A DNA stretch of 64,000 nt from Paludibacteraceae bacterium. Lineage in GTDB: Bacteria > Bacteroidota > Bacteroidia > Bacteroidales > Paludibacteraceae. The notes beneath the pieces are model-generated. The model was not told the origin of the DNA and did not search any database. It was given only the letters and a program-made list of their open reading frames with translations. Shown here in pieces: positions 45,063-61,056 of the stretch. The stretch spans positions 10,068-74,067 of the forward strand of contig JAGCWE010000131.1 of the NCBI GenBank assembly GCA_017962005.1, read 5' to 3'. The position numbers and the translations under genes were made by a program. Position 1 is the first letter of the stretch. Each line of letters opens with the position of its first letter.

Positions 45063-46256
45063 ATGCGTAAAAAATATCTTTTCTTCTTGTTGTGTCTGAC
45101 CCTGTCTGTGTCTGTCTTCGGGCAGGGTGATGAGTTGTCTGTCGCCGAGCGCAATGCGCGGCAGGGTTTCAACGACACTATCGACCGCCTCGCTCCTGAT
45201 TTCGTGTTGGTCAGCCTCTGCATCGCCGACCCGACGGATTGGCGCGAAGATGCGTTAGGTGCATCAGGACATGCGTTCCTGCGTCTCAGGTGCCCGGTTT
45301 TTGGTCTCGATTATTGTTTCAGTTATGAAGGGGAGAATGTGAATGATAATCTGTTTCGCTATTTGAGCGGCAAGACAAAGATGGGAATGTTTGCCGTGCA
45401 TACGGACGAGTATTTGGAGGACTATAGGAAGTGGAACCGTTCGGTGCATGAGTACGCCTTGGCCTTGCCTCCGGAGGTCGAGCAGCGCTTGTGGGAGATA
45501 ATGGACAATCATCTGACGAAAGGTCTGGTTCTCCGCCATGATTTGAACAAGTATGGCTGTGCCATTACTGTGGTTCGTTACATTAAGAAAGCCCTTGGTG
45601 ATGTGCCGGTTGTCTATGCTGCGGACTCTGATTTGGAGGGCATGACGCGTCGTGAGATTGGGTATCGTTCGTTGGCTTCTCATCCTTGGTTGCGTTTGAC
45701 ATCCATGATTTTTACCGACAACCGTGCGGACAGTGAATTGCCGATAGACGAGAAGTTGATTATACCTGCCGATTTGGCACAGGTCTGGCAGCTGGCCACG
45801 GTGCAGAATCAGTCTTTTGCAACCTATGTGGGCGATGTCGTGGAAGGTGCTCCGTTGGACAGTTCGGAACCTTGGTTTACGCCGATGTTGGTGGCTGTTT
45901 TGATTCTGCTTCTGACCATAGGTTTTGCGTTTACCGGATATCCGTATTGGGATTGGTTGTTATTGGGCGTACAGGCTCTTTTCGGCATAGCGTTGGTTGT
46001 GCTGTGGATTGTTATGAAAGAGTTCGGAAGCGCGGCTTGTTTGCTGATGGTGTTGTTCAATCCCTTGCCTCTTGTCTGCTGGCGTTGGCATCGTTATTGG
46101 GCATTGGCGTATGCTCTGTTGCTCGCGGTAGGCATTGTCGTTCTTGCCTGCTGGCCGCACATGTTGGTTGATCCGGCATTCTTGGTGCTCGCTGTGTCTT
46201 ACGTGGTGTTATTGGGTAAGGAGGGCATCAAGTCCCGTCTGAGTGTTCGCCGGTGA
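45063..46256 (+). CDS. DUF4105/Lnb-like membrane protein (periplasmic N-domain plus C-terminal TM bundle)
   Basis: It has a signal peptide (MRKKYLFFLLCLTLSVSVFGQ) and a GHAFLRL motif typical of the DUF4105 (Lnb N-terminal) domain. There are 4-5 C-terminal TM helices. Confidence 0.5.
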   Translation: MRKKYLFFLLCLTLSVSVFGQGDELSVAERNARQGFNDTIDRLAPDFVLVSLCIADPTDWREDALGASGHAFLRLRCPVFGLDYCFSYEGENVNDNLFRYLSGKTKMGMFAVHTDEYLEDYRKWNRSVHEYALALPPEVEQRLWEIMDNHLTKGLVLRHDLNKYGCAITVVRYIKKALGDVPVVYAADSDLEGMTRREIGYRSLASHPWLRLTSMIFTDNRADSELPIDEKLIIPADLAQVWQLATVQNQSFATYVGDVVEGAPLDSSEPWFTPMLVAVLILLLTIGFAFTGYPYWDWLLLGVQALFGIALVVLWIVMKEFGSAACLLMVLFNPLPLVCWRWHRYWALAYALLLAVGIVVLACWPHMLVDPAFLVLAVSYVVLLGKEGIKSRLSVRR

Positions 46257-47419
46257 GTTATCCGCTTCTTCCATATTCGCAGTTGGTGTTCGATTTGCTC
46301 AGGACCAATCCGGACGTGTACTGGACTTGTTTCTGTATGCGGCTGGATAAGAAGAAGGTGGATGTCGGGCGCTTGAAGCGGGCGATGGAACAGGCCATTC
46401 GGAATCATCCTGTTTTCTTTATGCGTGTGGACGGGAGCGGACAGCAGCGGTATGAACCCCGGCCCGATATGCTGCATGGTCAGTATTATTCGGTGGATTT
46501 TGTGGAAGACGGGCAGTTCGTGGATGTGCGTGTGAGAAAGAACCGCATATTGGGCGACGGGCGGAGCGATCGTCTTATTATGGAGGATGTGATGCGAGCG
46601 TATTGCAATTTGCCGCTGGAGCACGATGATTATCTGGATTATTTGCAGCGTGTTGAGCAGGAGAGGCAGTCTCCGCGTTATCAGCGGAACCGGCAATGGC
46701 TGGAATCGGAATATGGGCAGCTGTCTTGTCCTGTTCATCCGGTGACGGACGTACCGGTTGACATGGCGGATATGGAGGAAGAGGGCATGCTGACGGAAGA
46801 TTATAGCCCGATGCGGTCAGACTTGAACCGCTTGGGCGAAGAGCGGCTTGTTACATTGACGGCATTCTTCTCGCTTGCGTCCGCGTTGGCAATGATGGAG
46901 TATAACGACTGCAACGAAGCGGCATTGACGTGGGCGTATGAAGGTCGTGAGCGTCCCGAAGAGCAGCGCATCTTTGGAAGTCTGCACCGCGATATTCCCT
47001 TCCAAATCAAAAATTTGAAATCAGAAAAAATCGTACCCTTTAAGGGTAAAGAAATCAGAAATCAGAAATCGGATTTGATCCGACAGGCTCGTAATCAAAT
47101 CCGCTCCGGCATTGCGCATAGTGGTTATCCGTTTACGCTTGTTTGTCCGCATACGGATATTTGGAACTATGCGTTGAATGTGTTGGAGCAGTCTTCAATG
47201 CAGGCGAAGATGGCGGATGTGCCGTTCCCGTTCGAAGTGTATGAGCTGGAAGATGCGCCGCATGTGGCGTATTCGTTGATGGATGTGGAGATTTATAATG
47301 AAGAGCGGTTGCTGGTCATGTATCGCTATTCCGCTACGCATTACAAGGAATCGTCTGTCCGCCGCTTTGCGGCATTGGTGAGAAAATATGCCGGATGGCT
47401 ATTGGAAGATGAAGGATAA
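46253..47419 (+). CDS. Condensation-domain-fold protein with degenerate catalytic motif
   Basis: The GTG start overlaps the upstream stop (GTGA). The N-terminal half resembles an NRPS C-domain or PapA-type acyltransferase, but the HHxxxDG position reads NRILGDG. It contains a low-complexity insert, FQIKNLKSEKIVPFKGKEIRNQKSD. Confidence 0.4.
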   Translation: MSYPLLPYSQLVFDLLRTNPDVYWTCFCMRLDKKKVDVGRLKRAMEQAIRNHPVFFMRVDGSGQQRYEPRPDMLHGQYYSVDFVEDGQFVDVRVRKNRILGDGRSDRLIMEDVMRAYCNLPLEHDDYLDYLQRVEQERQSPRYQRNRQWLESEYGQLSCPVHPVTDVPVDMADMEEEGMLTEDYSPMRSDLNRLGEERLVTLTAFFSLASALAMMEYNDCNEAALTWAYEGRERPEEQRIFGSLHRDIPFQIKNLKSEKIVPFKGKEIRNQKSDLIRQARNQIRSGIAHSGYPFTLVCPHTDIWNYALNVLEQSSMQAKMADVPFPFEVYELEDAPHVAYSLMDVEIYNEERLLVMYRYSATHYKESSVRRFAALVRKYAGWLLEDEG

Positions 47420-48542
47420 AAGGGATATGGTGGAAATCTTGCGGCAGTTGCTGGCAGCCGATTCAGCCTTGCTGCAGCTTGCTGGGCAGTCGCTGGCGCA
47501 GGCGGCGCGGGCGAATCCGCACCTGCGCACCAATCCCGTGCGCTCGTTGGATGACTGGTTCGCTTATCTGGAGCGTTTCCTGCATCGGATGCCTTGGCAG
47601 ACGATGGATATAGGTGAAGACGCCTCCTTCTTCCGCCGCATAGACCAGAATATAGGCTATTTCTATTTCCTCATCGACCAGCCCCTCGATGCCCTCAGGA
47701 ACTGCGGTTATATCTGGCCTTCGTTGCAATACGAACCGCGCATTGCGGCATGGCTTGTGGACTACAACAAGGCTTGGGGCGAATGGCTGGGTGGTGCGGA
47801 TAGTTGGAATGATGAATATTACCGGTTGGCGCGTACGGACAGCCGCTTTGAATTGGATACCGACCGCTATGAGTCACCCGATAACTGGCACTCATGGAAT
47901 GATTTCTTTGCCCGCAGACTGCGCCTTCCCCCTTTCAATTTTCCACTTTCCACTTTCCACTTTCCGCTTTCCACTTTCCACTTGACCGCTCCTTGCGACG
48001 GTGTACTGATGAACTATCCTGTGAAGACAATGAGTACGGATCATCTGCAGGACTTGTTGGGCGGCAGCCCCTGTGCGGAGAGGTTTGAAGGAGGAGAGGC
48101 GGTGCATATAGTGCTTGATGTCTTCGACTATCATCGTTTCCATGCGCCGTGTGCGGGCAGGGTGGTGGAGCGGAAGATTATACCTGGTATCCATGCCGGC
48201 GGCGGAGTCATTATCTGGGATGAGGCGGAAGGACGCTACCGCTATGAGCAGTGTGGTGCCACGGACTTCCAATCGCTTGAGACCCGCGGAGTGCTGGTGT
48301 TGGATACACCCGGCTTCGGTCACATTGCGCTTGTCGCCGTAGGTGTCCAGCAGGTCAGTTCGGTTGTCTGGTCCTCCAATCTTCAATCTTCAATCATAAA
48401 TCATAAATCCCCAATCCGTCTCTCGCAGGGAGACGAGTTGGGGTCCTTCCTCTTCGGTGGCAGCGATATCGTTCTTCTCTTCGAACCGGGTAAGGCCCCG
48501 CGTATTACCGAGAAATCGGTTAAAGTAGGGGATATCTTATAA
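47409..48542 (+). CDS. Phosphatidylserine-decarboxylase-family (pyruvoyl-dependent) decarboxylase with long N-terminal extension
   Basis: PSD-family blocks are WNDFFARRL ... APCDG ... HRFHAP ... GDELGSFLFGGSDIVLLFE, with GGS at the self-cleavage position. The start is uncertain (47388, 47409 or 47427). Two heptamer tracts lie inside the gene. Confidence 0.7.
   Translation: MKDKRDMVEILRQLLAADSALLQLAGQSLAQAARANPHLRTNPVRSLDDWFAYLERFLHRMPWQTMDIGEDASFFRRIDQNIGYFYFLIDQPLDALRNCGYIWPSLQYEPRIAAWLVDYNKAWGEWLGGADSWNDEYYRLARTDSRFELDTDRYESPDNWHSWNDFFARRLRLPPFNFPLSTFHFPLSTFHLTAPCDGVLMNYPVKTMSTDHLQDLLGGSPCAERFEGGEAVHIVLDVFDYHRFHAPCAGRVVERKIIPGIHAGGGVIIWDEAEGRYRYEQCGATDFQSLETRGVLVLDTPGFGHIALVAVGVQQVSSVVWSSNLQSSIINHKSPIRLSQGDELGSFLFGGSDIVLLFEPGKAPRITEKSVKVGDIL
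47941..47982. repeat. Heptanucleotide tract (TTCCACT)x6, one variant unit, in frame within the decarboxylase gene
   Basis: TTCCACT x3, TTCCGCT, TTCCACT x2 make 42 nt and encode FPLSTFHFPLSTFH. Confidence 0.9.
48375..48416. repeat. Heptanucleotide-period tract (nnCAATC / nnAAATC x6) in frame within the decarboxylase gene
   Basis: TCCAATC TTCAATC TTCAATC ATAAATC ATAAATC CCCAATC, encoding SNLQSSIINHKSPI. Confidence 0.85.
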
Positions 48543-48592: not shown

Positions 48593-48600
48593 TACTTTTG
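48593..48600 (+). promoter_or_regulatory. -7 promoter box TACTTTTG
   Basis: It lies 64 nt upstream of the ATG at 48664. Confidence 0.55.
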
Positions 48601-49820: not shown

Positions 49821-50564
49821 ATGAAACGATATGCATTAGTGACTGGCGCAAGCCGGGGAATAGGAAGAGCCATTGCCGTTGAGTTGGCAAAGGACGGCTG
49901 TTCTATTCTGTTGAATTATAAATCCAATCACGCTGCGGCGGAAGAAACTCTGCGTCTCATTGAAGCAACTGGCGGCGAAGCGGAACTGATGCCCTTTGAT
50001 GTCAGTCAGCCTGATGCCGTCAATGCTGCCTTGGACAAATGGTTTTCAGCCCATCCGGATGAGTATATTGACGTGCTGGTGAACAACGCCGGTATCGTGG
50101 ATGACGAGATTATGCTCCTGATGGAGCCGGAGCAGTGGCATCGTGTCATTGATGTCAACCTCAACGGCTTCTTCTATTGCACCCGCCGCGTGATAGAGGG
50201 CATGGTGGAGAACCATCACGGACGTATCGTCAATATATCTTCTATAGCAGGACAAAAAGGTCATCCGGGGCAAGTAAATTATGCAGCAGCAAAGGCTTCT
50301 CTTATTGGCGCGACAAAAGCATTGGCAACGGAATTGGCGACTAAACAGGTGACAGTCAATGCTGTGTCACCGGGCTTGGTGGAAACGGATATGGCAGAAA
50401 AAGTTGCAGAATATTTACCGGAGCGTATGCGTGATATCAATAGCATCCCCATGCGCCGCCTCGGTAAACCGGAAGAAGTTGCATATCTTGTATCTTTCCT
50501 CTGTAGTAATCGCGCCGACTATATCTCCGGACAAGTAATCGGCATCAATGGTGCCGCATTATAA
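49821..50564 (+). CDS. fabG: 3-oxoacyl-ACP reductase (SDR family)
   Basis: Diagnostic motifs are TGASRGIGRAIA, NNAG, and the S...YAAAK catalytic triad. Confidence 0.85.
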   Translation: MKRYALVTGASRGIGRAIAVELAKDGCSILLNYKSNHAAAEETLRLIEATGGEAELMPFDVSQPDAVNAALDKWFSAHPDEYIDVLVNNAGIVDDEIMLLMEPEQWHRVIDVNLNGFFYCTRRVIEGMVENHHGRIVNISSIAGQKGHPGQVNYAAAKASLIGATKALATELATKQVTVNAVSPGLVETDMAEKVAEYLPERMRDINSIPMRRLGKPEEVAYLVSFLCSNRADYISGQVIGINGAAL

Positions 50565-50566: not shown

Positions 50567-50613
50567 GCTGAAAACTGACCACTGGCAACTGAATACTGAA
50601 AACTGACCACTTC
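50567..50613. repeat. Heptanucleotide-period intergenic spacer (ACTGAnn x7)
   Basis: GCTGAAA ACTGACC ACTGGCA ACTGAAT ACTGAAA ACTGACC ACTTCCA, immediately before the KS1 ATG. The related spacer ACTGACCACTGATAACTGACCACTT precedes fabG (49796-49820). Confidence 0.8.
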
Positions 50614-50615: not shown

Positions 50616-51836
50616 ATGAAACGCGTAGTAATAACAGGCATGGGCATCTGGTCTTGCATAGGGCAGGATCTGCAGACCGTCACTGAGAGCCTTCGGATGG
50701 GACGCTCAGGAATCGGCGTGCGCCCGGAACGCAGGGCATTGGGCTATCACTCCTTGTTGACGGGCATTGTGCCACGCCCGGATTTGAAACCTTTGTTGAA
50801 TCGTCGTCTGCGCAATACGCTCTCTGAAGAGGCGGAGTACGCATGTATGGCTGTGCGTGAAGCGCTGATGAATGCCTATTTGGATGAAGACTATCGTATG
50901 CAAAATGAGATAGGTGTCGTGTTTGGTAATGACACCTCCAATCAGTCTGTAGTGGATTCGTATGTGACCGCGAAAGAGGCAGGTGATACCTTTATTTTGG
51001 GCTCCGGTATGGCGTTTCAGGCACTCACCGGCAATGTGGCGATGAATATGGCGAATATCTTCCATCTGCGCGGAGCAAATTTTACGACGGCATCTGCATG
51101 CGCTTCCGGCGCACAGGCAATCGCTTTGGCGGCGATGCTCATCCAAACAGGGCAACAAGACATCGTGGTGGCTGGAGGTGCGCAGGAGACCAACGACAAG
51201 TCCATGATTGCTTTTGATGGAGTCAACACCTTGTCCAAGCGCAACGATGACCCGCAGCATGCCTCGCGTCCGTTCTGTAAACAGCGGGACGGACTGGTGC
51301 CGGGCGGAGGCGCGGCCGCGCTTGTCTTGGAGGAATATGAACACGCCGTTGCCCGTGGAGCGCATATCGTGGCGGAGATTGCGGGATATGGATTCTCGCA
51401 GAACCTGACTCCGCTTGGCCAGCCCTCTGCAGAAGGCGAATATGAAGCGATGGTACGCGCCTTGCGGAATGCTGGTCTGAATCCGCAAGATATAGATTAT
51501 GTCAATGCCCATGCCACTTCCACGATGGCAGGAGATATGGCGGAGGCCGAAGCCTTGACACGATTGTTTGGCAGGAAACCGTTTGTGTCCTCCACGAAGT
51601 CGATGACCGGACATGAATGTTGGATGGCGGGGGCGAGCGAGACGGTATACAGTGTTCTTATGATGCAGCATGACTTTATAGCCCTGAATATCAATATCGC
51701 CGAGTTGGACGATGCTGCCAAAGACCTCAGTATCGTTCGTGAGCCTTTGGAGGCAAAGATAAATATCGCTCTCTCCAATTCCTTTGGTTTCGGCGGTACG
51801 AATTTCACTTTGGTTTTTAAAAAGCCCAACGTCTGA
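50616..51836 (+). CDS. Beta-ketoacyl-ACP synthase (KS1), catalytic Cys-His-His intact
   Basis: Active-site Cys in TASACASGAQAI, first His in NAHATST, Lys in SSTKS, second His in TGHECWMAGA. The terminal block is FGFGGTN. Confidence 0.85.
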   Translation: MKRVVITGMGIWSCIGQDLQTVTESLRMGRSGIGVRPERRALGYHSLLTGIVPRPDLKPLLNRRLRNTLSEEAEYACMAVREALMNAYLDEDYRMQNEIGVVFGNDTSNQSVVDSYVTAKEAGDTFILGSGMAFQALTGNVAMNMANIFHLRGANFTTASACASGAQAIALAAMLIQTGQQDIVVAGGAQETNDKSMIAFDGVNTLSKRNDDPQHASRPFCKQRDGLVPGGGAAALVLEEYEHAVARGAHIVAEIAGYGFSQNLTPLGQPSAEGEYEAMVRALRNAGLNPQDIDYVNAHATSTMAGDMAEAEALTRLFGRKPFVSSTKSMTGHECWMAGASETVYSVLMMQHDFIALNINIAELDDAAKDLSIVREPLEAKINIALSNSFGFGGTNFTLVFKKPNV

Positions 51837-51868: not shown

Positions 51869-52132
51869 ATGACAAAGCAAGAGATTATTGAAAAGACGAA
51901 TGCCTTTCTTGTTGAAGAATACGAGAAAGATCCGGCGTTGCTTGCACCAGAAGCGCGTTTCCGCGAAGATTTAGACTTGAACAGTCTGGACTACATGGAT
52001 TTGATGGTCACTGTCAAACGGGTCTTTGGGGTTATGCCTGCTCCGGCAGAGATGAACCTCGTGGTGACATTAGGTGATTTCTACAATTTCATCGAGCGCA
52101 AACTGTCTGAACTGCCCCCATCCAATGAGTGA
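51869..52132 (+). CDS. Acyl carrier protein (ACP1)
   Basis: 87 aa with the phosphopantetheine-site motif DLDLNSLDYMDL. Confidence 0.8.
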   Translation: MTKQEIIEKTNAFLVEEYEKDPALLAPEARFREDLDLNSLDYMDLMVTVKRVFGVMPAPAEMNLVVTLGDFYNFIERKLSELPPSNE

Positions 52133-53579
52133 CAATAACCGACATACAGCCTGTATCATTGGCGGCGGCATGAGTGGTTTGTTTACCGGTGCACTGCTTG
52201 CCAGGAACGGTTATAAAGTGACCGTTCTGGAGAAAAACCACATCATCGGCGGAGGACTGCAATCCTTCCGCCGTGGTGATGCGGTGTTCAATACCGGTAT
52301 GCAATCTTTTGCCGGATATATGCCCAATATGATTAGCCTTCAATTTTGCAAATATTGTAGGGTGGATGATTTACTTGATGTTATGCCGACAGACGAGAAC
52401 CAACAGGAAATAGTATGGGTGGATAATCAGACAAATTATCGTCTTCCCAAAGGACGAGAGGCATACCAATCTTATCTAATCAAAATGTTTCCGCAAGAGG
52501 AAAAGGGAATTGGAGATTTAATGGATGCCGTATTCTACATAGGTCATACGTATGATTACCTGTTTCTTAACCCAATTCGGCGTCATGAGGAAAACATCCC
52601 GTATGCCTATATGAATGCATATGATTTTATTCTGCAATATGTCCATAATGAGCAATTAATCTCTGTTTTTGAATATGTATCTTGGACTACGGGACCCAGT
52701 TTGAAAGCCATGCCTGCGTTAGAGTTCTGTATGATGCTTACATTGTATATAATTGGTTCTCATCGCTTTGTGGGGGGTACAAAACAAATGGTGGATGCAT
52801 TTTGTCATGTGATTGAAAAAACGGGAGGAAAGGTGTATAATGAAACGGAAGTTTGTAAAATAAATGTTGAGAATGGCCGTGTTGTAGAGCTTATTGATAC
52901 AAATGGTAAAAAATGGGGGAGTGATGTTTATGTTTGGGCTTGTACGCCTAAAATTTTATTAGATGCCTGCAATGCGCCTGTATTCAGACTTGCTATGACT
53001 CAAAGAGTCAGAGAGTTTGTCAATCCCTTTACAATGTATATTGTATTTTGTAAACTAAAGCCAAAAAGATTCCCTTTTATCAATAGTGCAGTTTATATGC
53101 CTCGTCCATCGGATAAATCATACCTTCCGCAATCAATAGTCCTTGTGACTTCCCCGCACAGAAATCAAAACCAATGGGCACAGACAGCAGAAATATATAT
53201 ACCGGCTTGTTATGAGGAGTTGGGCAAGTGGGAGAATACAAAAGTACAGGATCGCGGTAGATTCTATGAGGAACATAAGAATCAAGTTGCTCGGAAAGCT
53301 TTGGATATGGTCTCTAATTTCTATCCGGATATAACAGATGCCGTTATGGATATAAACGTAGCGTCAGCTTTAACTATACGGGATTATTATGGTAATCCTC
53401 ATGGCGCTACGTACGGACAGCAGGGATTGTACCTGCCAATAAAAACCAAGGTGGCAAACTTATTCATGACAGGTCAAGCAGTGCAAAATCAAGGAATAGC
53501 TGGTATCGCAACTGCTGCAACACTTACAGCGGAAACTATACTTGGGAAAAGTATAATAGATGAAATAGCAAAAGCATAA
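52125..53579 (+). CDS. FAD-dependent oxidoreductase of the phytoene-desaturase (CrtI-like) family
   Basis: I set the start at MSDNNRH (an 8-nt overlap with ACP1). The dinucleotide fold reads CIIGGGMSGLFTGALLARNGYKVTVLEKN. The TAATG stop/start overlaps KS2. Confidence 0.75.
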   Translation: MSDNNRHTACIIGGGMSGLFTGALLARNGYKVTVLEKNHIIGGGLQSFRRGDAVFNTGMQSFAGYMPNMISLQFCKYCRVDDLLDVMPTDENQQEIVWVDNQTNYRLPKGREAYQSYLIKMFPQEEKGIGDLMDAVFYIGHTYDYLFLNPIRRHEENIPYAYMNAYDFILQYVHNEQLISVFEYVSWTTGPSLKAMPALEFCMMLTLYIIGSHRFVGGTKQMVDAFCHVIEKTGGKVYNETEVCKINVENGRVVELIDTNGKKWGSDVYVWACTPKILLDACNAPVFRLAMTQRVREFVNPFTMYIVFCKLKPKRFPFINSAVYMPRPSDKSYLPQSIVLVTSPHRNQNQWAQTAEIYIPACYEELGKWENTKVQDRGRFYEEHKNQVARKALDMVSNFYPDITDAVMDINVASALTIRDYYGNPHGATYGQQGLYLPIKTKVANLFMTGQAVQNQGIAGIATAATLTAETILGKSIIDEIAKA

Positions 53580-54838
53580 TGAAACGCGTTGTCGTAACAG
53601 GAATGGGAATATGGTCATGTATTGGACAAGACCTGCAAACAGTAACTGAAAGCCTTCAACAAGGGGGGTCGGGAATTGTTTTCGACCCTAAACGTATTGA
53701 ATACGGTCTCCAATCCGGTTTGGTAGGCAATGTGCCTCATCCGGATTTGAAACCTTTGTTGCCCCGTAAATTTCGTGCTACGATGTCTGAAGATGCCGAA
53801 TATGCCTATATGGCTGCCTGTCAGGCATTCGGGCATGCGCATATTCAGAAAGATTATCTGTTGCACAATGATGTGGGTGTTCTATGGGGAAATGACAGCG
53901 GAACTTCCACTGTGGTTGCAGCGATGAATGCCATGAACCAACACCATGATTCGTTTATGATAGGACCTTCTTGCCTGTTCCAAGGTGGAGCGTCAAGTGT
54001 TGTGATGAATCTGAGTACCATTTTCCATTTGCGCGGATGTGGAATAACGACAGCCGCCGGGTGTGCCAGTTCTTCCCATGCAATAGGAATGGCTTTTGTT
54101 TTAATTCAGACCGGTAAGCAAGATGTGATATTGGTAGGTGGCTCCTCAGAACTTCATCCTCTAATGACGGCAACATTCGATGCAACCAATATATTGTCTC
54201 TCCGCAATGAAGAACCGACTCATGCTATGCGCCCGTATGATGCGGAGCGAGACGGTACGGTTTTCAGCGGAGGAGCTGCGGCTTTGGTGCTCGAAGAATA
54301 CGAACATGCCGTAGCACGCGGAGCAACCATACTCGCCGAAGTATGCGGCTATGGATTTTCATCGAATGGTATCGATGAAATCTCCATGCCATCCGCAGAT
54401 GCGGAATATATCGCCATGAAGCGTGCTATCGAAGATGCTGGAATGCAGCCCTCCGATATTGATTATGTCAATGCCCATGCCACTTCCACTATTGCTGGTG
54501 ATGCCGAGGAAGCTAAAGCCCTGACACGCCTGTTTGTGGAAGAGAATCAAATCATAAATCATCAATCTGCAATCATAAATAGGAAACCCTATGTTTCCTC
54601 CACCAAGTCCATAACCGGTCATGAGAACTGGATGGCGGGTGCCAGCGAGGCGGTGTATAGCGTTCTCATGATGCAAAACGGCTTTGTCGCACCCAATATC
54701 AATCTGGGGCACAAAATTGATGAAGCGAAGGATCTCAATATCGTCACAGAAACCGTCTATACCCCCATCAACACCGTCCTGTCCAACTCCTCCGGCATGG
54801 GGGGCACGAATAGCGCGCTTGTGTTTCGAAAAATATAG
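53579..54838 (+). CDS. Beta-ketoacyl-ACP synthase (KS2), carrying a 13-aa low-complexity insert
   Basis: Diagnostic motifs are AAGCASSSHAI, NAHATST and TGHENWMAGA. The insert VEENQIINHQSAIIN lies between LTRLF and RKPYVSSTKS, relative to KS1. Confidence 0.85.
   Translation: MKRVVVTGMGIWSCIGQDLQTVTESLQQGGSGIVFDPKRIEYGLQSGLVGNVPHPDLKPLLPRKFRATMSEDAEYAYMAACQAFGHAHIQKDYLLHNDVGVLWGNDSGTSTVVAAMNAMNQHHDSFMIGPSCLFQGGASSVVMNLSTIFHLRGCGITTAAGCASSSHAIGMAFVLIQTGKQDVILVGGSSELHPLMTATFDATNILSLRNEEPTHAMRPYDAERDGTVFSGGAAALVLEEYEHAVARGATILAEVCGYGFSSNGIDEISMPSADAEYIAMKRAIEDAGMQPSDIDYVNAHATSTIAGDAEEAKALTRLFVEENQIINHQSAIINRKPYVSSTKSITGHENWMAGASEAVYSVLMMQNGFVAPNINLGHKIDEAKDLNIVTETVYTPINTVLSNSSGMGGTNSALVFRKI
54550..54584. 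repeat. Heptanucleotide-period tract (AATCnnn) inside KS2
   Basis: AATC recurs at 54550, 54557, 54564 and 54571. The tract lies in a 92-nt block (54515-54606) identical to 57105-57196 in KS4. Confidence 0.85.
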
Positions 54839-54931
54839 CCCATCTGGAATATATAGAGCATATGGAAAGCAGATTGAATCTAAAAAACAAATCCTAAAAA
54901 ACAATTGACAACGGATAACGTACAAATTTCA

Positions 54932-56161
54932 ATGAGGCGTGTCGTCGTAACAGGTATGGGTATTTGGTCTTGCATTGGGCAGGACTTGCAAACCGTGACA
55001 GAGAGTCTTAAGCAAGGTCGTTCCGGAGTCATCTTTGATCCGAAACGTGTTGAGTATGGTCTTCATTCCGGTCTTGTAGGCAATGTGCCCCGTCCGGATT
55101 TGAAGCCTTTGCTACCTCGCAAGTTCCGCGCAACGATGTCCGAAGATGCAGAATATGCTTACATGGCTGCGTGTCAAGCACTGGAAAAATCCGGTATAAC
55201 CGATGAATATTTGCGTCAAAATGAGGTGGGGCTGATATTTGGGAGTGAAGGCGCAACAGATTGCATTGTACAAGCAGCGGACATAATGGCGCAGGAGAAG
55301 GAGGTTACAGCATTACAGCCAAATATGTTGTTCCAAAGCGAAGCATCCTCTGTCTCGATGAATTTGAGTACGATTTTTCACATAAAAGGAATCAACTTGA
55401 CCATTAGTGCTGCATGTGCAAGTTCTTCGCATGCGATTGGTTTGGCGACGACGTTGATAAGAGATGGTATGCAGGATAGTATTCTTGTCGGAGGCTGTTG
55501 TATGTTGTCTGAAGTAAGCGCACCTGTTTACGATGCTATTAATGGCTTATCCAGAAGGAACGATAGTCCGCATAAGGCTTCCTGTCCTTTCGATGAGGCA
55601 CGTGATGGTATCGTCCATTCCGGAGGAGCAGCTGCTTTGATGCTTGAGGATTATGAGCATGCGATTGAGAGAGGAGCCGATATATTTGCAGAAATTGTAG
55701 GAATAGGAGTATGTAGCAATGGAGATGAAATCTCTGCCCCTACCACGATGAAAGTGGATGTGGCTATGCAGCGGGCAATAGCAGATGCCGGAATAGAGGC
55801 AGGTGATTTGGATTATATATGTCCAATGGCAGCTTCGTTAATCAATGAGGATGAGTATGAGGCGATAGCGATTGACAGACTGTTCCGGGATAAAAAGGCG
55901 TATGTCTCATCTACCGAATCTATGACCGGACATGAGAATTTCATGGCAGGTGCGTCTAAAACGGTATATACTATATTGATGATGCTGAATAATTTCATAG
56001 CGCCCAATATCAATTTGAAGACACCTTCTGAAGCGGCAAAAAATCTCCGGATCGCAAAGCAAACAATCCAAACTCCGATTCAATATGCAATGATTAATGC
56101 ATCTGGATTGGGAGGAACCAATTGCTGTATTGTAGTTAAAAATTATTCGAAAAGTAGTTGA
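54932..56161 (+). CDS. Ketosynthase-like protein (KS3) with degenerate catalytic His and Lys (CLF-like partner?)
   Basis: The Cys is retained (SAACASSSHAI). The first His block NAHATST is replaced by CPMAASL, and SSTKS by SSTES. The second His is retained (TGHENFMAGA). Confidence 0.75.
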   Translation: MRRVVVTGMGIWSCIGQDLQTVTESLKQGRSGVIFDPKRVEYGLHSGLVGNVPRPDLKPLLPRKFRATMSEDAEYAYMAACQALEKSGITDEYLRQNEVGLIFGSEGATDCIVQAADIMAQEKEVTALQPNMLFQSEASSVSMNLSTIFHIKGINLTISAACASSSHAIGLATTLIRDGMQDSILVGGCCMLSEVSAPVYDAINGLSRRNDSPHKASCPFDEARDGIVHSGGAAALMLEDYEHAIERGADIFAEIVGIGVCSNGDEISAPTTMKVDVAMQRAIADAGIEAGDLDYICPMAASLINEDEYEAIAIDRLFRDKKAYVSSTESMTGHENFMAGASKTVYTILMMLNNFIAPNINLKTPSEAAKNLRIAKQTIQTPIQYAMINASGLGGTNCCIVVKNYSKSS

Positions 56162-56165
56162 GACT

Positions 56166-57428
56166 ATGCGTAGGAGAGTTGTCGTCACAGGAATCGGGAT
56201 CTGGTCGAGTATCGGACAGAATCTTCAAACTGTCAGCGAGAGCCTTAAACAAGGGCGTTCCGGAATTGTTTTTGATTCGGAACGGATTGACTACGGCATG
56301 CGTACCGCGCTAATAGGAAATGTTCCTCTGGCTGATTTGAAACCATTATTACCGCATAGCCAAAGAGCTACCATGACTGAAGATGCGTGCTATGCGTATA
56401 TGGCCGCTCGTCAAGCATTTGAACAAGCGCGAATGGATGATGCATTTTTGCGAACAAACGAAGTGGGAGTCATCTTCGGAAATGATGGTAATTCCAGTGG
56501 TACAGAAGTGTCACCTGTTATGCGAAAGGAGAAAGACTCGGAAATGGTGGGTCCCTATTTATTATTTGCGGATCACACCTCATCACCGGTATTTCATTTA
56601 AGTTCCTTGTTTCATTTGAGAGGTGTAAGTTATAGTGTGGATGCAGCATGTTCTTCATCATCTCATGCAATAGGAATCGCCTCTGTTCTGATTCGTAACG
56701 GGATACAATCTACGATATTGGTAGGAGGCTCTATGGAGGTACATAGATTGCCTTTCTTTGCGGAGATGGATGTTGCAGATATGCTGTCTCGTCGTAATGA
56801 AGAACCGGAAAAAGCATCTCGCCCATTCGACCAAGATCGAGATGGTATGGTTCCTTCTGGTGGCGCAGCAGCTTTAGTTTTAGAAGAATACGAGCATGCC
56901 GTAGCACGCGGCGCAACTATTTTGGCGGAAGTGGCAGGCTACGGCTTCTCCTCCAACGGTATAGAAGAAATATCCATGCCTTCCGCCGATGCGGAGTTCA
57001 TCGCCATGAAACGTGCTATCGCAGATGCCGGACTGCAACCTTCTGACGTCGACTACGTCAACGCCCATGCCACTTCCACTCTCGCGGGCGACATCGAGGA
57101 AGCCAAAGCCCTGACACGCCTGTTTGTGGAAGAGAATCAAATCATAAATCATCAATCTGCAATCATAAATAGGAAACCCTATGTTTCCTCCACCAAATCC
57201 ATGACAGGCCATGAAAACTGGATGGCGGGTGCCAGCGAGGCGGTATATAGTATTCTCATGATGCAAAACAATTTTGTCGCACCCAATATTAATCTCGAAA
57301 ACGTCATCGACGAAGCCAAAGACCTCAATATCGTCCGCAAGACGGTCTATACCCCCGTCCGTACCGTTCTTTCCAACTCCTCCGGCATGGGAGGTACCAA
57401 TAGCGCGTTGGTTTTTAGAAAAATATAA
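56166..57428 (+). CDS. Beta-ketoacyl-ACP synthase (KS4), same 13-aa insert as KS2
   Basis: Diagnostic motifs are DAACSSSSHAI, NAHATST and TGHENWMAGA. The C-terminal half is highly similar to KS2, including VEENQIINHQSAIIN. Confidence 0.85.
   Translation: MRRRVVVTGIGIWSSIGQNLQTVSESLKQGRSGIVFDSERIDYGMRTALIGNVPLADLKPLLPHSQRATMTEDACYAYMAARQAFEQARMDDAFLRTNEVGVIFGNDGNSSGTEVSPVMRKEKDSEMVGPYLLFADHTSSPVFHLSSLFHLRGVSYSVDAACSSSSHAIGIASVLIRNGIQSTILVGGSMEVHRLPFFAEMDVADMLSRRNEEPEKASRPFDQDRDGMVPSGGAAALVLEEYEHAVARGATILAEVAGYGFSSNGIEEISMPSADAEFIAMKRAIADAGLQPSDVDYVNAHATSTLAGDIEEAKALTRLFVEENQIINHQSAIINRKPYVSSTKSMTGHENWMAGASEAVYSILMMQNNFVAPNINLENVIDEAKDLNIVRKTVYTPVRTVLSNSSGMGGTNSALVFRKI
57140..57174. repeat. 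Heptanucleotide-period tract inside KS4 (copy of the KS2 tract)
   Basis: It has the same sequence as 54550-54584. Confidence 0.85.
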
Positions 57429-57484
57429 CGTCTAACCTCTAACCTCTAACAACAAAGTGGTCTGACATCTAACTTCTTATTTAT

Positions 57485-57727
57485 ATGGATACGCAAGAAA
57501 TTCAATCAAAGGTAAATGCCTTTATGAACAATCGTCTGGAGTATGATGCAGAACGCCTCACTCCTGAAACAGAATTGAAACGCGACCTTGGCATGACGTC
57601 TCTCGATGCTGTGGAGACCTCTCTTTTCATTAAGCGCACCTTCGGCTTTCAGCCGGAACGTGGTGTGATGAAGACCATAGGAACGCTCCAGGATCTGTAT
57701 GATTACATCGAAGATCATCAAGGATGA
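57485..57727 (+). CDS. Acyl carrier protein (ACP2)
   Basis: 80 aa with the motif DLGMTSLDAVE. Confidence 0.8.
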   Translation: MDTQEIQSKVNAFMNNRLEYDAERLTPETELKRDLGMTSLDAVETSLFIKRTFGFQPERGVMKTIGTLQDLYDYIEDHQG

Positions 57728-57845
57728 TAGTGTATGGTGTGCATGTTTCCGAAAAATACGGAAAGATTTTTGAATTATTTCCGCGAAACAATGACAATTT
57801 TTGAAAAGTCATAGTAAAATATTTGGATATATTCCTGAAGAGTTG

Positions 57846-57853
57846 TAATTTTG
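57846..57853 (+). promoter_or_regulatory. -7 promoter box TAATTTTG for the AbiE module
   Basis: It lies 27 nt upstream of the ATG at 57880. Confidence 0.55.
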
Positions 57854-57879: not shown

Positions 57880-58500
57880 ATGACATACACACAATTCTAT
57901 AATCAATGGCACTCGTTAGGTTGTTTTTCGGTAAACCAAGTGCATGCTATCGTACCGACTTTCAATAGGTCGAACCTTCACCAATGGCAGAAAGCCGGAT
58001 ACATCGTTCCTCTTCGGAAAGGATGGTATGCATTTGCCGATTATGTGCAACAGCCGGATTATGCTCGGTATTTTGCAGGTAAGATATGCGCTCCGTCGTA
58101 CATCAGTCTGCATACTGCATTATCTTTCTATGGTATAATTCCGGAGGCTGTGGTAGAGATAACGAGCGTGACGACGCAAAAGACGTGCCGATACAAGAAC
58201 GCGTTTGGCCAGTTCAGTTATCAGACGGTTCGTCCGCGGTTATTCTGGGGCTTTGAACCTAAGACGATGCGGGATGGAAAGCAATATATGATGGCTACAC
58301 CGGAGAAGGCGATTATCGACTTGCTGTACCTCTATCCACAATATGCGACAGTAGAAGAGATGCGGGAGTTGCGGTTGGATGAGGAATGGATGCAGGAAGA
58401 GTTTGACAAAGAGCGGTTGATGAGTTATGTGGAGCGGATAGGAAGTCCGATAATAAAGAAAAAAGTGCGTTTGCTTTTAAATGCGTACGAAATTAGATAA
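57880..58500 (+). CDS. AbiEi-family type IV antitoxin / transcriptional regulator
   Basis: The N-terminal wHTH-like AbiEi_4-type region reads FSVNQVHAIVPTFNRSNLHQWQKAGYIVPLRKGWYAF. A cognate AbiEii gene follows. Confidence 0.75.
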   Translation: MTYTQFYNQWHSLGCFSVNQVHAIVPTFNRSNLHQWQKAGYIVPLRKGWYAFADYVQQPDYARYFAGKICAPSYISLHTALSFYGIIPEAVVEITSVTTQKTCRYKNAFGQFSYQTVRPRLFWGFEPKTMRDGKQYMMATPEKAIIDLLYLYPQYATVEEMRELRLDEEWMQEEFDKERLMSYVERIGSPIIKKKVRLLLNAYEIR

Positions 58501-58528
58501 ACGAATAGCTCATTGCTGAAAACAGAAC

Positions 58529-59311
58529 ATGATTGACATGGAATACATACGGGGATTTTACCCCCCGTACATTGCCCTGAATGCAAACATGCAGAAGCAT
58601 ATGCTGAAGGAGTATGTGGAGTTGTTGGCGCTGGAGTGGATAACCCGTTCTCCGTATGCGGCGAAATTGGTGTTCATCGGAGGTACGAACTTGCGGTTGA
58701 TACAGGGTATTGACCGGTTCTCAGAGGACTTGGATTTTGATTGCAAAGGGCTGAGCGAGGAAGAGTTCCGGCGGATGTCGGATGAGTTGGTGAAATACCT
58801 GCAACAGCATGGATTGAACGCAGAGTTGCGCAACAAGGAGAATACGCGGTTGATGGCATTTCGCAGCAATGTGTATTTCCCGGAACTGCTGTTTGACTTG
58901 CAACTAACCGGTCATCGGGAGGAACGTTTTCTGATGAAGATAGAGGCGCAGGATCAAAGAACGGATTATCCTCGTGAGATGGCTATTATGCAGCGGAACG
59001 GGTTCTCGTTCCCGGTGCCGGTGCCACCGTTGAGCGTACTGCTATCGATGAAACTATGTGCACTACTGGCGCGGCAGAAAGGAAGGGATTTCTATGACAC
59101 GATGTTTCTGATGCAGCGGACAGAGCCGGATTATGGCTTCTTGCTGAATCAGAAGGGGATTGCGAACAAGGAGCAATTGGATGCTGCCCTACGGGAGATG
59201 GTAAGCAAGACCGATATGAAGACCAAACAGCGCGACTTTGAGCACTTGCTGTTCGATAGCCGCAAGAGCGAGACGATACTGGAATTTATTAGACTGACCT
59301 CTGTCATATGA
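58529..59311 (+). CDS. AbiEii/AbiGii-family nucleotidyltransferase toxin
   Basis: NTase motifs are FIGGTNLRLIQGIDRFSEDLDFDC. It is 260 aa. Its stop overlaps the ACP3 start (ATGA). Confidence 0.8.
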   Translation: MIDMEYIRGFYPPYIALNANMQKHMLKEYVELLALEWITRSPYAAKLVFIGGTNLRLIQGIDRFSEDLDFDCKGLSEEEFRRMSDELVKYLQQHGLNAELRNKENTRLMAFRSNVYFPELLFDLQLTGHREERFLMKIEAQDQRTDYPREMAIMQRNGFSFPVPVPPLSVLLSMKLCALLARQKGRDFYDTMFLMQRTEPDYGFLLNQKGIANKEQLDAALREMVSKTDMKTKQRDFEHLLFDSRKSETILEFIRLTSVI

Positions 59312-59556
59312 CAAAGCAAGAAATAATACAACAGACCAACGCGTTTTTCAGCGACAGACTGGATTCTGACATGTCGCATGTCACTCCGGATACGGAACTC
59401 AAACATGATTTGGGAATCACCAGTGTCGATGCCGTAGCCATCGCCTCTTTTGCACAAAAATCTTTCGGCTGTCCCGTCATCATGTCCGAAATCAAAGCCA
59501 TCATCACAATGGATGATCTCTACAACTATATTGAGAAGAATGGTAAATTATCTTGA
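59308..59556 (+). CDS. Acyl carrier protein (ACP3)
   Basis: 82 aa with the motif DLGITSVDAVA. The 5' end (ATATGACAAAGCAAGA...) resembles that of ACP1. Confidence 0.8.
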   Translation: MTKQEIIQQTNAFFSDRLDSDMSHVTPDTELKHDLGITSVDAVAIASFAQKSFGCPVIMSEIKAIITMDDLYNYIEKNGKLS

Positions 59557-60952
59557 CATCCTTGCTGAAACTATCCGCAATAACTGGGATCAGCCTGCCC
59601 TTACGGATTTCTACCTCACCGAAGACGGTAAGGCTCAAGACACCTCACGCGGTAACCGTTACACCTACGGCGAGATGTATGCAGAGATTGTCCGCGTCGC
59701 CGATTTTCTCACACAACTTGGTTTGCAAGCCGGCGACCATATTGCTATTTGCGGCGCCAATTCTGCCCACTGGGTTATTTCCTACCTCGCCATCGCCAAG
59801 ATGCAAGATGTGTCTGTCGCCATCATGCATACCCTTCAACCGGATCAGATTGCGCAGATGATCAATTTCTCCGATGCCAAAGCGTTGTTTATAGATAAGG
59901 AATTATGGGAAGAATTAAAACAACAATCGTTGCCAAGGGTGGCGAGTGTGATTGCGTTGGAAGATTGGATTGTACTATACGGGCATCGAATAAGAATAAA
60001 TGACAATAATCAATTAACAATTAACAATGACCAATGCCAATTCATCCATGGTGAACTTGACGAATTGGCAATGCTCTGTTTCACCTCTGGTTCATCAGGA
60101 AAACCGAAAGGGGTGATGCTGTCATATAGGAATATTCATTCATCAGTACGTTGCGTTGGAGATACATATCCTGTCAATAAGAACAGAAACACTTTAGCGT
60201 TAATTTCTTTGTCACATCTTTTAGGTTTTGGTAGTACTTTGGTACAACTAACCAAGTGTTGTCATATATTTATTCTTCGGCAGTCAAATGATTTTGTCCG
60301 TTTGCCTCAAATCATATGGATAGTGCAACCTTATGTGTTATTCGGAGTTCCTCAATTATTAGCAATAGCTGCTAAAATGTGGAATCAGAAAAAAATGTTA
60401 TTTTTGGAGAGTTTTGTTGTAGGTGGTGCTGTTGTCTCTGATGTGCTGTGCCGCCAACTAAAGGAGGTGGCGTTCCCATTAGCGACAGGATATGGGGCTA
60501 CAGAATCAAGTGGAACAATCAGTCTTGCATCTGCTCTCTCTTTTCGAGAAGAGTCTTCTGGGAAAGTCGTTGAAGGTTGTAGTGTTAGCATCGCTCCTAA
60601 CGGTGAAATTCTTGTCAAAGGTGAAAATGTCATGTTGGGCTATTATAAAGATCCAGAAGCGACGGCGCAAAAGATAGACAAGGACGGTTGGCTCCATACT
60701 GGCGATAAGGGACATCTGGACGAGGATGGCTATCTCTATGTGGAAGGTCGTTTGGAGCAGGACATCATCGTTCTTCCCAACGGCGAGAACATCCGTCCGG
60801 ATGCTATTGAATCCCTCATCAATGCGCTGCCTGAGGTCTCCGACTCCATCGTCTTCGCCCGTGATGGTCACCTCATCGCAATAGTCGTACCACCAATCAC
60901 CAATCACCAATCACCAATGCGGATTTACGCCGCAGCATATTGCGTGCGATAA
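59540..60952 (+). CDS. AMP-dependent synthetase/ligase (acyl-ACP or acyl-CoA ligase-like); reading frame leaves the conserved C-terminus at a (CACCAAT)4 tract
   Basis: ANL motifs are FTSGSSGKPKGV, GYGATESSG and GWLHTGDKGHLDEDGYLYVEGR. I set the start at MVNYLDIL. After the tract the frame gives PMRIYAAAYCVR-stop, while the conserved tail lies in another frame. Confidence 0.75.
   Translation: MVNYLDILAETIRNNWDQPALTDFYLTEDGKAQDTSRGNRYTYGEMYAEIVRVADFLTQLGLQAGDHIAICGANSAHWVISYLAIAKMQDVSVAIMHTLQPDQIAQMINFSDAKALFIDKELWEELKQQSLPRVASVIALEDWIVLYGHRIRINDNNQLTINNDQCQFIHGELDELAMLCFTSGSSGKPKGVMLSYRNIHSSVRCVGDTYPVNKNRNTLALISLSHLLGFGSTLVQLTKCCHIFILRQSNDFVRLPQIIWIVQPYVLFGVPQLLAIAAKMWNQKKMLFLESFVVGGAVVSDVLCRQLKEVAFPLATGYGATESSGTISLASALSFREESSGKVVEGCSVSIAPNGEILVKGENVMLGYYKDPEATAQKIDKDGWLHTGDKGHLDEDGYLYVEGRLEQDIIVLPNGENIRPDAIESLINALPEVSDSIVFARDGHLIAIVVPPITNHQSPMRIYAAAYCVR
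59988..60044. repeat. Heptanucleotide-period tract (CAATnnn x~8) in frame inside the ligase gene
   Basis: CAAT recurs at 60004, 60011, 60018, 60025 and 60032. The tract encodes RINDNNQLTINNDQCQ. Confidence 0.8.
60891..60918. repeat. Perfect heptanucleotide repeat (CACCAAT)x4
   Basis: Four perfect units of 28 nt, which is not a multiple of 3. The tract sits exactly where the ligase frame and the conserved C-terminal frame diverge. Confidence 0.95.
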
Positions 60953-61056
60953 ATCCGCAACTCCCTCTTTTCTCCCAGCTCTATGATGTGGAAATCACGG
61001 ATATCCCGCTACAAAGAACCGAAAAACAAACCCTCAAGAGGTATCTCTATAAATAA
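60916..61056 (+). other. Out-of-frame 3' segment encoding the conserved ligase C-terminus
   Basis: The alternative frame reads NADLRRSILRAINPQLPLFSQLYDVEITDIPLQRTEKQTLKRYLYK-stop. This is the expected ANL C-terminal subdomain ending, including the conserved Lys-containing T-x-K-x-x-x-K-R block. Confidence 0.7.

Follow-up and report, generated by a model that had tools for sequence, protein, structure and literature searches.

The best-described gene clusters that resemble the locus analysed here are those of the flexirubin and aryl polyene (APE) systems. The flexirubin cluster, which comprises flxA-flxY together with darAB, is known from Chitinophaga pinensis and Flavobacterium johnsoniae; in C. 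pinensis the gene order is flxA (tyrosine ammonia-lyase, TAL), flxB (ketoreductase, KR), flxC (ketosynthase, KS), flxD (acyl carrier protein, ACP) and flxE (LpxL-like), and a retinol-saturase-like protein, FlxV, is also encoded (PMC3992019). The locus considered here is a series of plus-strand genes at positions 45063-61056 of a 64-kb stretch of DNA from a rumen Paludibacteraceae bacterium (hereafter the window), examined together with its flanks. It is an uncharacterised variant related to the flexirubin and APE systems and a member of neither; the searchable literature on aryl polyenes, Bacteroidales flexirubins, PsiD-like enzymes of bacterial clusters, DUF4105 and DUF3737 yielded no description of such a cluster. 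In our opinion, the best explanation, to which we assign a probability of roughly 0.45, is that it belongs to a modular envelope-lipid family of rumen and gut Paludibacteraceae and their relatives, in which a core is combined with an interchangeable acyl supply.

Precedents are also available for parts of the locus. In rhizobia, housekeeping type II fatty acid synthesis (FAS) is diverted by a dedicated ACP (NodF) that works with a FabB/FabF-like KS (NodE) and a FabG-like KR (NodG), and a dedicated acyltransferase N-links the unusual acyl chain to an amine, the acceptor of NodA being a chito-oligosaccharide. The glycopeptide X-domain is a condensation-superfamily domain with an altered motif, HRxxxDD. 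The resemblance of the locus to the Nod system is functional only: Nod is a precedent for a cluster that encodes no dehydratase, malonyl-transferase or phosphopantetheinyl transferase, but it differs in acceptor and transferase and has no decarboxylase, condensation (C) domain, Lnb-like protein or CrtI-like enzyme. Lnb and other DUF4105 proteins, to which one of the window proteins is related, are NlpC/P60-type acyltransferases (PMC11573676, PMC12994826).

Genes were called from the list of open reading frames (ORFs) and from Pfam and NCBIfam profile searches of the window proteins. About 20 related loci, designated by L numbers, served for comparison; the downstream flank was taken from L001, a same-species metagenome contig of 114.7 kb, and the E. 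coli CFT073 ape cluster supplied the APE reference genes. The ORFs and profile searches bear out the gene list and gene order given by a first-pass annotation of the window, which counted eleven same-strand genes in a list of twelve. They also bear out its four overlaps: 8 nt between ACP1 and the oxidoreductase gene, 1 nt (TAATG) between the latter and KS2, 4 nt (ATGA) between AbiEii and ACP3, and 17 nt between ACP3 and the ligase gene.

The conserved trio and its variable surroundings

What stays constant across the related loci is a trio of genes encoding an Lnb-like, a C-domain-like and a PsiD-like protein, together with a DUF3737 gene; the genes between them vary. In L095 and L098, an ACP and an AMP-ligase are all that lies between the trio and DUF3737, with no KS, KR or oxidoreductase. 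L097 has KR-KS-ACP-ligase and no oxidoreductase; L011 and L014 have KR-KS-ACP-oxidoreductase, which in L013 is accompanied by ApeP/ApeI-like dehydratases and in L007, L020 and L085 by a further KS and ACP (KS-b-ACP-b). L016 is arranged as L007 with dehydratases added, and L006 carries dehydratases, a degenerate KS-b, an ACP and a ligase. Two or three KSs stand 3′ of the oxidoreductase gene in L009, L012 and the window. The ApeI/ApeP-type dehydratase pair is present in L006, L009, L013 and L016. Judged by gene content, the window appears to be the most expanded version of the family. The set of four KSs and three ACPs, which had been taken to define the locus, does not define it, as the relatives have from zero to three KSs. 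Since the trio is constant while KS number varies from none to three, the trio is likely to be the functional heart of the system, and the KS set would be an optional, lineage-specific acyl-tailoring module.

The loci are also mosaic. The oxidoreductase and KS2 of the window are 89% and 87% identical to those of L009 (dS 0.55-1.07), with 67% for the KR and 56% for KS1; relative to L007, the KR and KS1 are 81% and 83% identical. Such a pattern implies module exchange, with recombination near the KS1/ACP1/oxidoreductase boundary. Among species representatives, the closest is a metagenome-assembled genome (MAG) of a Paludibacteraceae bacterium from red-deer rumen, with an oxidoreductase 89% identical to that of the window. 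Homologues number at least 968 for the decarboxylase and at least 1161 for the oxidoreductase, whose superfamily also takes in flexirubin-type clusters. Same-species contigs are 99.9% identical to the window over up to ~18 kb, with all ORFs but the ligase intact. The dN/dS values of every gene tested lie between 0.04 and 0.2; dS is saturated in most pairs and the values are therefore rough, but they support constraint on the cluster genes.

The first gene of the trio (45063-46256) encodes a protein with a signal peptide, a periplasmic DUF4105/NlpC-P60-like domain and a C-terminal region of multiple transmembrane (TM) segments. It resembles Lnb of Bacteroides (PMC11573676) in length (397 vs 398 amino acids), in domain layout and in a conserved His and Cys. 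It differs in scoring 64.5 bits on the NCBIfam Lnb equivalog, below the cut-off of 550, and in being encoded beside a C-like gene; Pfam 5TMH_Lnb matches residues 275-388 with 21.1 bits, under Pfam's own cut-off. All 13 family members compared keep a GH pair (His70) and Cys166, and model positions suggest that these residues correspond to His49 and Cys148 of Lnb. Some proteins of the family are short, with a single TM segment. Taken together, these comparisons indicate a paralogue, not an orthologue, of the lipoprotein N-acyltransferase Lnb. The gene adjoins the C-like gene throughout the relatives (the L094 copy is 39% identical), with the exception of L097, where a Sulfatase/Pyr4-TMTC pair stands upstream of the C-like gene in place of a called Lnb-like gene.

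The second gene (46253/46337-47419) encodes a free-standing protein that matches Pfam Condensation with 63.2 bits. A sequence search of the PDB returned one marginal nonribosomal peptide synthetase match, and a fold search was needed for a clear one: the AlphaFold model (pLDDT 88.8) has a full C-domain fold, with Foldseek TM scores of 0.73-0.77 to C, Cy and E domains. The C-fold assignment of the first-pass annotation thus holds as to fold, but the catalytic H-H is replaced by N-R, N-R-I-L-G-D-G aligning with H-H-I-I-S-D-G at the HHxxxDG position. The family motif is [NSH]RxxxD[GAS], with Arg at the second position in all members. An Arg at the second-His position of a C-domain fold is shared with the glycopeptide X-domain, from which the window protein differs in being free-standing (relatives are fused to the decarboxylase or to an adenylation-peptidyl carrier protein, A-PCP, unit) and in having no P450 context. 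The family is small: of 1.84 billion representatives, ~41 clusters match at E ≤ 1e-30.

The third gene (47388/47409-48542) encodes a putative pyruvoyl decarboxylase that matches Pfam PS_Dcarbxylase with 106.7 bits and reaches at best 63 bits on the NCBIfam phosphatidylserine decarboxylase (PSD) equivalogs (cut-off 371). Its best solved relatives are the PsiD L-tryptophan decarboxylases (E 5e-8), ahead of E. coli PSD (E 7e-4). It shares with PsiD of Psilocybe the FGG|S self-cleavage site, the YHR(F/W)HAP motif (here DYHRFHAP), a soluble nature and a long N-terminal extension; the alignment with the PsiD beta chain stops at the cleavage site. It should be noted that the similarity is weak and leaves a tryptophan substrate unsupported, and that the window protein is bacterial and, in some relatives, fused to the C-like domain. 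Such C-like/PSD-like fusions (P0244, P0249, P0251, P0257 and P0263) occur within the family itself. In a sister branch (L093 and L094; motif HRVLGD/NRILGD), the C-like domain is fused to, or lies upstream of, an A-PCP didomain, an Lnb-like gene (39% identity) precedes it, and genes for Sulfatase (LtaS/EptA-like) and PMT_2 (ArnT-like) proteins adjoin. This branch suggests a broader family of Lnb-like/C-like envelope-modification systems. The fusions, and the Lnb-like gene kept beside the C-like gene in the A-PCP branch, support a link between the putative functions of the trio. The DUF3737 beta-helix gene, the conserved last gene of the cluster, lies just past the window end.

Ketosynthases, carrier proteins and tailoring enzymes

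All four KSs, namely KS1 (KS-a, 50616-51836), KS2 (KS-b, 53579-54838), KS3 (54905-56161) and KS4 (KS-b′, 56166-57428), match the FabB model best, with 339-362 bits, and the FabF model with 281-332 bits, far below the NCBIfam equivalog cut-offs of 630 and 494. They are 39-42% identical to FabB, 32-37% to FabF, 31-35% to ApeR and 23-28% to ApeO; for KS1 the values are 41% (FabB), 35% (ApeR) and 27% (ApeO), and its alignment with E. coli FabB runs end to end (E 6e-83). In a neighbour-joining tree that includes E. coli FabB, FabF, ApeO and ApeR and the KSs of the related loci, KS1-4 fall into a single clade, sister to FabB. The clade includes the KS encoded behind the TAL gene of a flexirubin-type locus, L089 (61% identical to KS1). 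A housekeeping FabB or FabF identity was rejected on the scores below the equivalog cut-offs, on context and on this clade common to flexirubin-type clusters.

The FabB affinity of the four KSs, the end-to-end alignment of KS1 and a KR that exceeds the FabG model cut-off (283 vs 273 bits) would fit an auxiliary fatty acid synthase, with FabB-type elongation serving unsaturated or unusual bulk membrane fatty acids. We consider this improbable. The shortfall of the KS scores against the equivalog cut-offs opposes it, as does the finding that no fabH, fabD, fabZ, fabA or acpP lies near the cluster. The genes are linked to the trio and to a CrtI-like enzyme, the KS clade is found inside flexirubin-type clusters, and among close relatives the cluster occurs patchily and with differing modules.

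At the positions of the FabB active site (C163/H298/K328/H333), KS1, KS2 and KS4 have C-H-K-H, as expected of active enzymes, and KS3 has C-M-E-H, so that the degeneracy noticed at first pass in KS3 is real. Degenerate orthologues of KS3 occur in L009 (S-A-E-H), L012 (C-G-E-H) and L006 (C-R-D-H), and KS3 has a dN/dS of 0.14 relative to L009. Its residues suggest that KS3 is probably a non-condensing partner subunit of an active KS, or a chain-length factor (CLF). KS4 is 71% identical to KS2, the 3′ 593 nt being 83% identical at the DNA level, and has orthologues in L009 and L012; it appears to be an old duplicate of KS2. Because KS2, KS3 and KS4 each have an L009 orthologue, the triplication is older than the species split. 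KS1 belongs to a KS-a/KR subtype without dehydratase, which forms a separate, stable subclade represented by at least nine species-level loci.

The KR (49821-50564), an SDR protein, scores 333.6 bits on the NCBIfam FlxB model (NF053542), whose cut-off is 340; it shares 45% identity with E. coli ApeQ, compared with 39% for FabG. For each ACP the best match is ApeF: 39% for ACP1 (ACP-a, 51869-52132), 31% for ACP2 (ACP-b, 57485-57727) and 29% for ACP3 (59308-59556), all PP-binding proteins. ACP1 is the best-conserved protein of the cluster, 79-90% identical in relatives whose oxidoreductases are 46-61% identical, and its overlap with the oxidoreductase gene is kept in all of them. ACP2 is 69-78% identical to the ACP that closes the KS-b module in relatives; ACP3 is 68% identical to the ACP ahead of the L095 ligase and 47% to ACP2. 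In the same-species contig L003, a 1-nt deletion near the ACP1 start (equivalent to window position 51874) cuts the called gene to 45 amino acids; it may be a true polymorphism or a fault of the assembly.

The CrtI-like FAD oxidoreductase (52125-53579; Pfam Amino_oxidase/NAD_binding_8) yields a model with pLDDT 84, whose closest fold is that of the gamma-carotenoid desaturase 4REP (TM 0.73), followed by CrtI, with amine oxidases at ~0.6. Its gene travels with the KS-a/ACP-a module and not with the decarboxylase. We considered whether the flavoenzyme acts as an amine oxidase on the decarboxylase product; this is disfavoured by the nearest fold and by the linkage to KS-a/ACP-a. The enzyme probably belongs to the class of the retinol-saturase-like FlxV of flexirubin synthesis, and in flexirubin-type clusters homologues of 41% identity occur as fusions with a PlsC-type acyltransferase. 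Given the FlxB/ApeQ-like KR, the desaturase-like fold, the homologues in flexirubin clusters and the flx gene order, the KR-KS1-ACP1-oxidoreductase block is best read as a putative flexirubin-type sub-module.

Comparison with the flexirubin systems by gene order and through L089 sets out both sides of this relationship. The window order KR-KS-ACP is that of flxB-flxC-flxD, and the flavoenzyme is a candidate member of the FlxV class. L089, a Bacteroidales cluster of the form TAL-KS-ACP-LpxL-like-acyltransferase/oxidoreductase...LolA-glycosyltransferase-ligase-MMPL, encodes homologues of ACP1 (50%) and of the oxidoreductase (41%) in addition to that of KS1. In contrast, the window has no TAL, F390-type ligase, DarA/DarB, thioesterase, LolA, exporter, glycosyltransferase, halogenase or dehydratase, and in place of acyltransferases it has the Lnb-like, His-less C-domain and PsiD-like proteins. 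With APE systems the locus shares type II logic, a discrete KR and ACPs and an adenylating enzyme, and its sister clusters share ApeI/ApeP-like hot-dog dehydratases. It differs in KSs closer to FabB than to ApeR or ApeO, in the absence of a 240-amino-acid ApeC-type CLF and of an ApeO:ApeC pair, in a ligase not detectably related to ApeH, and in having no thioesterase, LolA, MMPL, glycosyltransferase or LPLAT. Orthology to APE was rejected, as affinity to the CFT073 ape genes is confined to the KR and the ACPs.

The absences were surveyed by Pfam scans of the 20 other window ORFs, which encode housekeeping and surface proteins, and of 10 kb downstream on L001. No dehydratase, thioesterase, ammonia-lyase, LolA or MMPL gene was found in either, which upholds the first-pass statement for the window and extends it downstream; the scans of both regions likewise gave no match to a glycosyltransferase or an LPLAT-type acyltransferase. 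TAL FlxA, DarA/DarB and the LolA/exporter set were not found in the window or the downstream flank. Neither tblastn nor Pfam detected an ApeI/ApeP dehydratase pair in the window, whose intergenic gaps are too small for one. Downstream of the ligase, L001 carries hipBA, a second HTH/hipA pair, DUF3737 and a giant Flg_new surface protein gene, so the dehydratase, thioesterase and export genes do not lie just beyond the window. The locus is not a syntenic orthologue of a characterised cluster, in line with the first-pass annotation, which had described it as an orphan. Its appeal to APE and flexirubin logic is supported by the KR, the ACPs and the L089 homologues, less so by the adenylating starter enzyme, which is frameshifted.

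These results bear on whether the locus is a stripped-down APE/flexirubin pigment cluster, making a conjugated polyene that housekeeping FabZ dehydrates and in which the CrtI-like enzyme adjusts double bonds; the trio would then only anchor the pigment in the outer membrane, replacing the LolA/MMPL/acyltransferase set. The FlxB/ApeQ-like KR, the ApeF-like ACPs, the ApeI/ApeP-like dehydratases of sister clusters, the match to the C. pinensis gene order and FlxV, and homologues of KS1 and the oxidoreductase inside a flexirubin-type cluster with TAL, LolA and MMPL all speak for such a pigment. We nevertheless find it unlikely, for the locus has no ammonia-lyase, ApeO/ApeC-type KS-CLF pair, thioesterase or dehydratase, and the dehydratase-less subtype is a stable lineage of its own. 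Moreover, many members have a single KS or none and are unable to make a long polyene. Because of such relatives and the missing ammonia-lyase, a long aryl polyene appears an unlikely product of the window as well.

Ligase frameshift, inserted cassettes and repeat arrays

The AMP-ligase gene (59540-61056) encodes a putative acyl-AMP/ACP ligase (AMP-binding, 193.6 bits). The first-pass assignment was correct as to family but not in giving an uninterrupted gene to 61056: the ORF ends at 60952, owing to a frameshift in a heptanucleotide array at 60891-60918 ((CACCAAT)x4). There are three CCAATCA units here, where the frame would require one or four. The tail continues in the +1 frame (60919-61056) for 46 conserved codons, ending in …ITNADLRRSILRAINPQLPLFSQLYDVEITDIPLQRTEKQTLKRYLYK*; this frame is open and 80% identical to L006. 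L006 and L095 have an array at the same site, in frame. The out-of-frame allele is found in all same-species contigs that cover the site (L001-L004) and in the NCBI protein MBP5477698.1, from a Paludibacteraceae MAG, whereas ~120 ligase homologues (57-67% identity) are 498-538 amino acids long and span the whole reconstructed protein including its C-terminal domain. No in-frame allele was found in the 90% cluster, which contains only the 470-amino-acid form, or in a pattern scan of JGI metagenomes. Because of the frameshift, and as many relatives have no ligase at all, the enzyme is probably inactive in this strain.

Ahead of ACP3 lies a canonical AbiE pair of the abortive-infection (type IV toxin-antitoxin) kind, AbiEi (57880-58500) and the adjacent AbiEii (58529-59311), with PADLOC scores of 233 and 318 bits over full length and a Pfam AbiEii match of 73 bits. 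The AbiEi-AbiEii-ACP-ligase block recurs in L095 (8339-11524), with identities of 78%, 83%, 68% and 64%; for this reason the position of the pair is not random, and it may stabilise, regulate or drive transcription of the ACP-ligase loading module.

Other inserted genes are abundant. An AAA ATPase of the ATPase_2 type (48652/48664-49800) lies between the trio and the KR gene and has homologues at differing junctions in relatives, e.g., an L095 copy, 64% identical, between ligase and DUF3737; it is a probable inserted cassette. The junction between the PSD-like and KR genes is occupied by an ATPase in most loci, although the families differ. Past the ligase, a first hipBA cassette (61018-62725, plus strand; hipB 61183-61488, hipA 61485-62585) is flanked by 98-nt direct repeats at 61018-61115 and 62628-62725 that are 98% identical and take in a terminator-like hairpin as well as the final 13 codons, counting the stop, of the ligase tail in its shifted frame. 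These repeats look like the footprint of cassette insertion or of duplication by recombination. The cassette is ~80% identical in DNA to one sited between KS-b and ACP-b in L007. A second HTH/HipA cassette (62771-64000, plus strand) lies between the cluster and DUF3737. Nearly every relative (L006-L016, L020, L085, L090, L095, L097 and L098) has one to three same-strand insertions at differing junctions, comprising AAA ATPases (ATPase_2 or AAA_14-DUF4143), HipBA, Bro-N and RhuM.

The distribution of promoter-like motifs separates these insertions from the biosynthetic genes. A Bacteroidetes-type -7 motif of the pattern TAnnTTTG, TACTTTTG (45028-45035, plus strand), lies 27 nt upstream of the first gene and may function as a promoter. 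Motifs of this pattern precede that gene and each cassette (AAA, at 48593; AbiEi, at 57846; hipB; HTH), and no internal biosynthetic gene. A terminator-like hairpin (57746-57764) lies 3′ of ACP2. The single promoter-like motif ahead of the first gene, together with gaps that are short and genes that overlap, supports a predicted operon. A sigma-70 promoter scan was uninformative (27 sites found vs 31 expected).

The frameshift raises the question of whether the locus is a decaying remnant with no defined product in this genome. The frameshift is unique among the ~120 ligase homologues and fixed across all six contigs, three kinds of cassette have been inserted, and KS3 is without its His and Lys; on this reading the dehydratases would have been lost. 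However, the other ORFs are intact and the stretches of up to ~18 kb shared across samples show no disruptions; catalytic residues are kept in KS1, KS2, KS4, the decarboxylase and the Lnb-like protein; and the degenerate KS is an old, conserved lineage. The tail frame of the ligase remains open, ligase-less and dehydratase-less architectures are common and conserved among relatives, and cassettes interrupt essentially every one of them. Decay is therefore quite unlikely in our view.

The cluster is rich in tandem arrays of 7-nt period, 11 of the 12 in the window lying within 47-61 kb (47050, 47932, 48377, 48392, 50568, 54549, 57139, 57426, 59999/60003 and 60891). Most have 2.6-4.6 copies (~18-32 nt) and three have 5.6-7.4. 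L006, L007, L009, L013, L014 and L095 have arrays at homologous sites, namely the ligase C-terminus, a KS loop near residue ~320 and gene junctions. A (CTGACAA)x6.3 array, found with TRF at 50568-50611 (plus strand), spans the KR/KS1 junction, and the same unit fills the ACP/ligase junction of L095. A (TAACCTC)x3.6 array at the KS4/ACP2 junction (57426-57450, plus strand) is exactly one unit longer in all five same-species metagenome contigs and is thus length-polymorphic. That unit is the only shared indel; the L003 deletion in ACP1 is the sole other one over up to ~18 kb. Contingency switches and junction spacers are candidate roles for the arrays. One might go further and suppose that the trio and DUF3737 perform a hitherto undescribed carrier-protein-dependent envelope acylation in Bacteroidales. 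A custom chain made or loaded on its own ACP would be coupled to a head group of amino-acid origin by the Arg-type C-domain enzyme and the PsiD-like decarboxylase, the Lnb paralogue would acylate lipoproteins or a surface acceptor from the periplasmic side, and the arrays would phase-switch supply modules that are swapped between strains, so that surface lipidation would vary by strain and by phase; we regard this as speculative and doubtful.

Other repeats lie outside the cluster. A tandem array with 11/22/33-nt periodicity (ATATACGTTAG...) at 44847-44936, 130 nt upstream of the first gene, recurs reverse-complemented at 25387-25495 beside an AAA_14-DUF4143 gene with a 212-bit match to PDC-S01, a candidate defence family, and a pyrimidine-rich 22-nt array occupies 44723-44816. 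A perfect 33-nt x2.6 repeat (14441-14526) and a 117-nt x1.8 repeat (14673-14883) are intergenic, between a surface-protein gene (11857-14382) and a prolyl-tRNA synthetase gene.

Proposed pathway and its significance

For the modular envelope-lipid family that we favour, the substrates, the order of steps and the cellular destination would be as follows. An acyl chain carried by a dedicated ACP would be coupled by the core to an amine or head group that derives from an amino acid, with the soluble C-like enzyme and the decarboxylase acting one after the other. On the periplasmic side of the inner membrane, the Lnb-like enzyme would transfer or remodel what they make, and the outcome would be an acylated amine, an aminolipid or an acylated protein bound to the envelope. 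Acyl chains could be supplied by up to three kinds of module: (i) an ACP and an AMP-ligase that would load a free acid; (ii) a KR, a FabB-like KS, an ACP and a CrtI-like flavoenzyme that would extend and tailor the chain, the flavoenzyme acting on ACP1-bound intermediates; and (iii) a further KS-ACP. Malonyl transfer, phosphopantetheinylation and, where ApeI/ApeP are missing, dehydration would be borrowed from housekeeping FAS, as with NodF/NodE. The window would then combine module (ii), a triplicated module (iii) (KS2, degenerate KS3 and KS4) and module (i), the ligase of the last having been switched off, presumably through loss of one 7-nt unit. With the ligase off, priming would fall to an acyl-ACP from primary metabolism, as in many ligase-less relatives.

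Several points weigh against this proposal. The pathway is a prediction from the genes. The C-like protein lacks the canonical catalytic His and may be a scaffold, not a catalyst; only some orders of steps are feasible, since a pyruvoyl decarboxylase requires a free amine; and DUF3737 could be a mere syntenic neighbour. The FabB-sister position of the KSs leaves formal room for a role in ordinary unsaturated fatty acid synthesis, and the frameshift, the missing dehydratase and the many inserted cassettes could mean that the pathway is decaying here. As the likeliest product we expect an acylated amine or an aminolipid bound to the envelope. The visible genes do not allow its structure to be predicted, and in this we agree with the first-pass annotation; of the specialised lipid or polyene conjugate that it envisaged, the lipid, placed in the envelope, is the alternative we favour.

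Lnb was identified only in 2024, and the envelope lipids and lipoprotein modifications of the abundant rumen and gut Bacteroidales are poorly known. A PsiD-like decarboxylase, a His-less condensation-fold protein and an Lnb paralogue have not previously been seen together with a type II FAS/PKS-like module, and the novelty of the locus lies in the conserved trio and the modular acyl supply more than in the number of KSs. Rumen metagenomes commonly contain the family, whose homologues run into the hundreds. Its loci, which have between zero and three KSs and may include or lack dehydratases and a ligase, constitute a natural experiment for module functions. If the locus does direct a surface lipid or an alternative lipoprotein acylation, this would matter for membrane biology, for the way the host immune system recognises Bacteroidales lipids and for the shuffling of biosynthetic modules.

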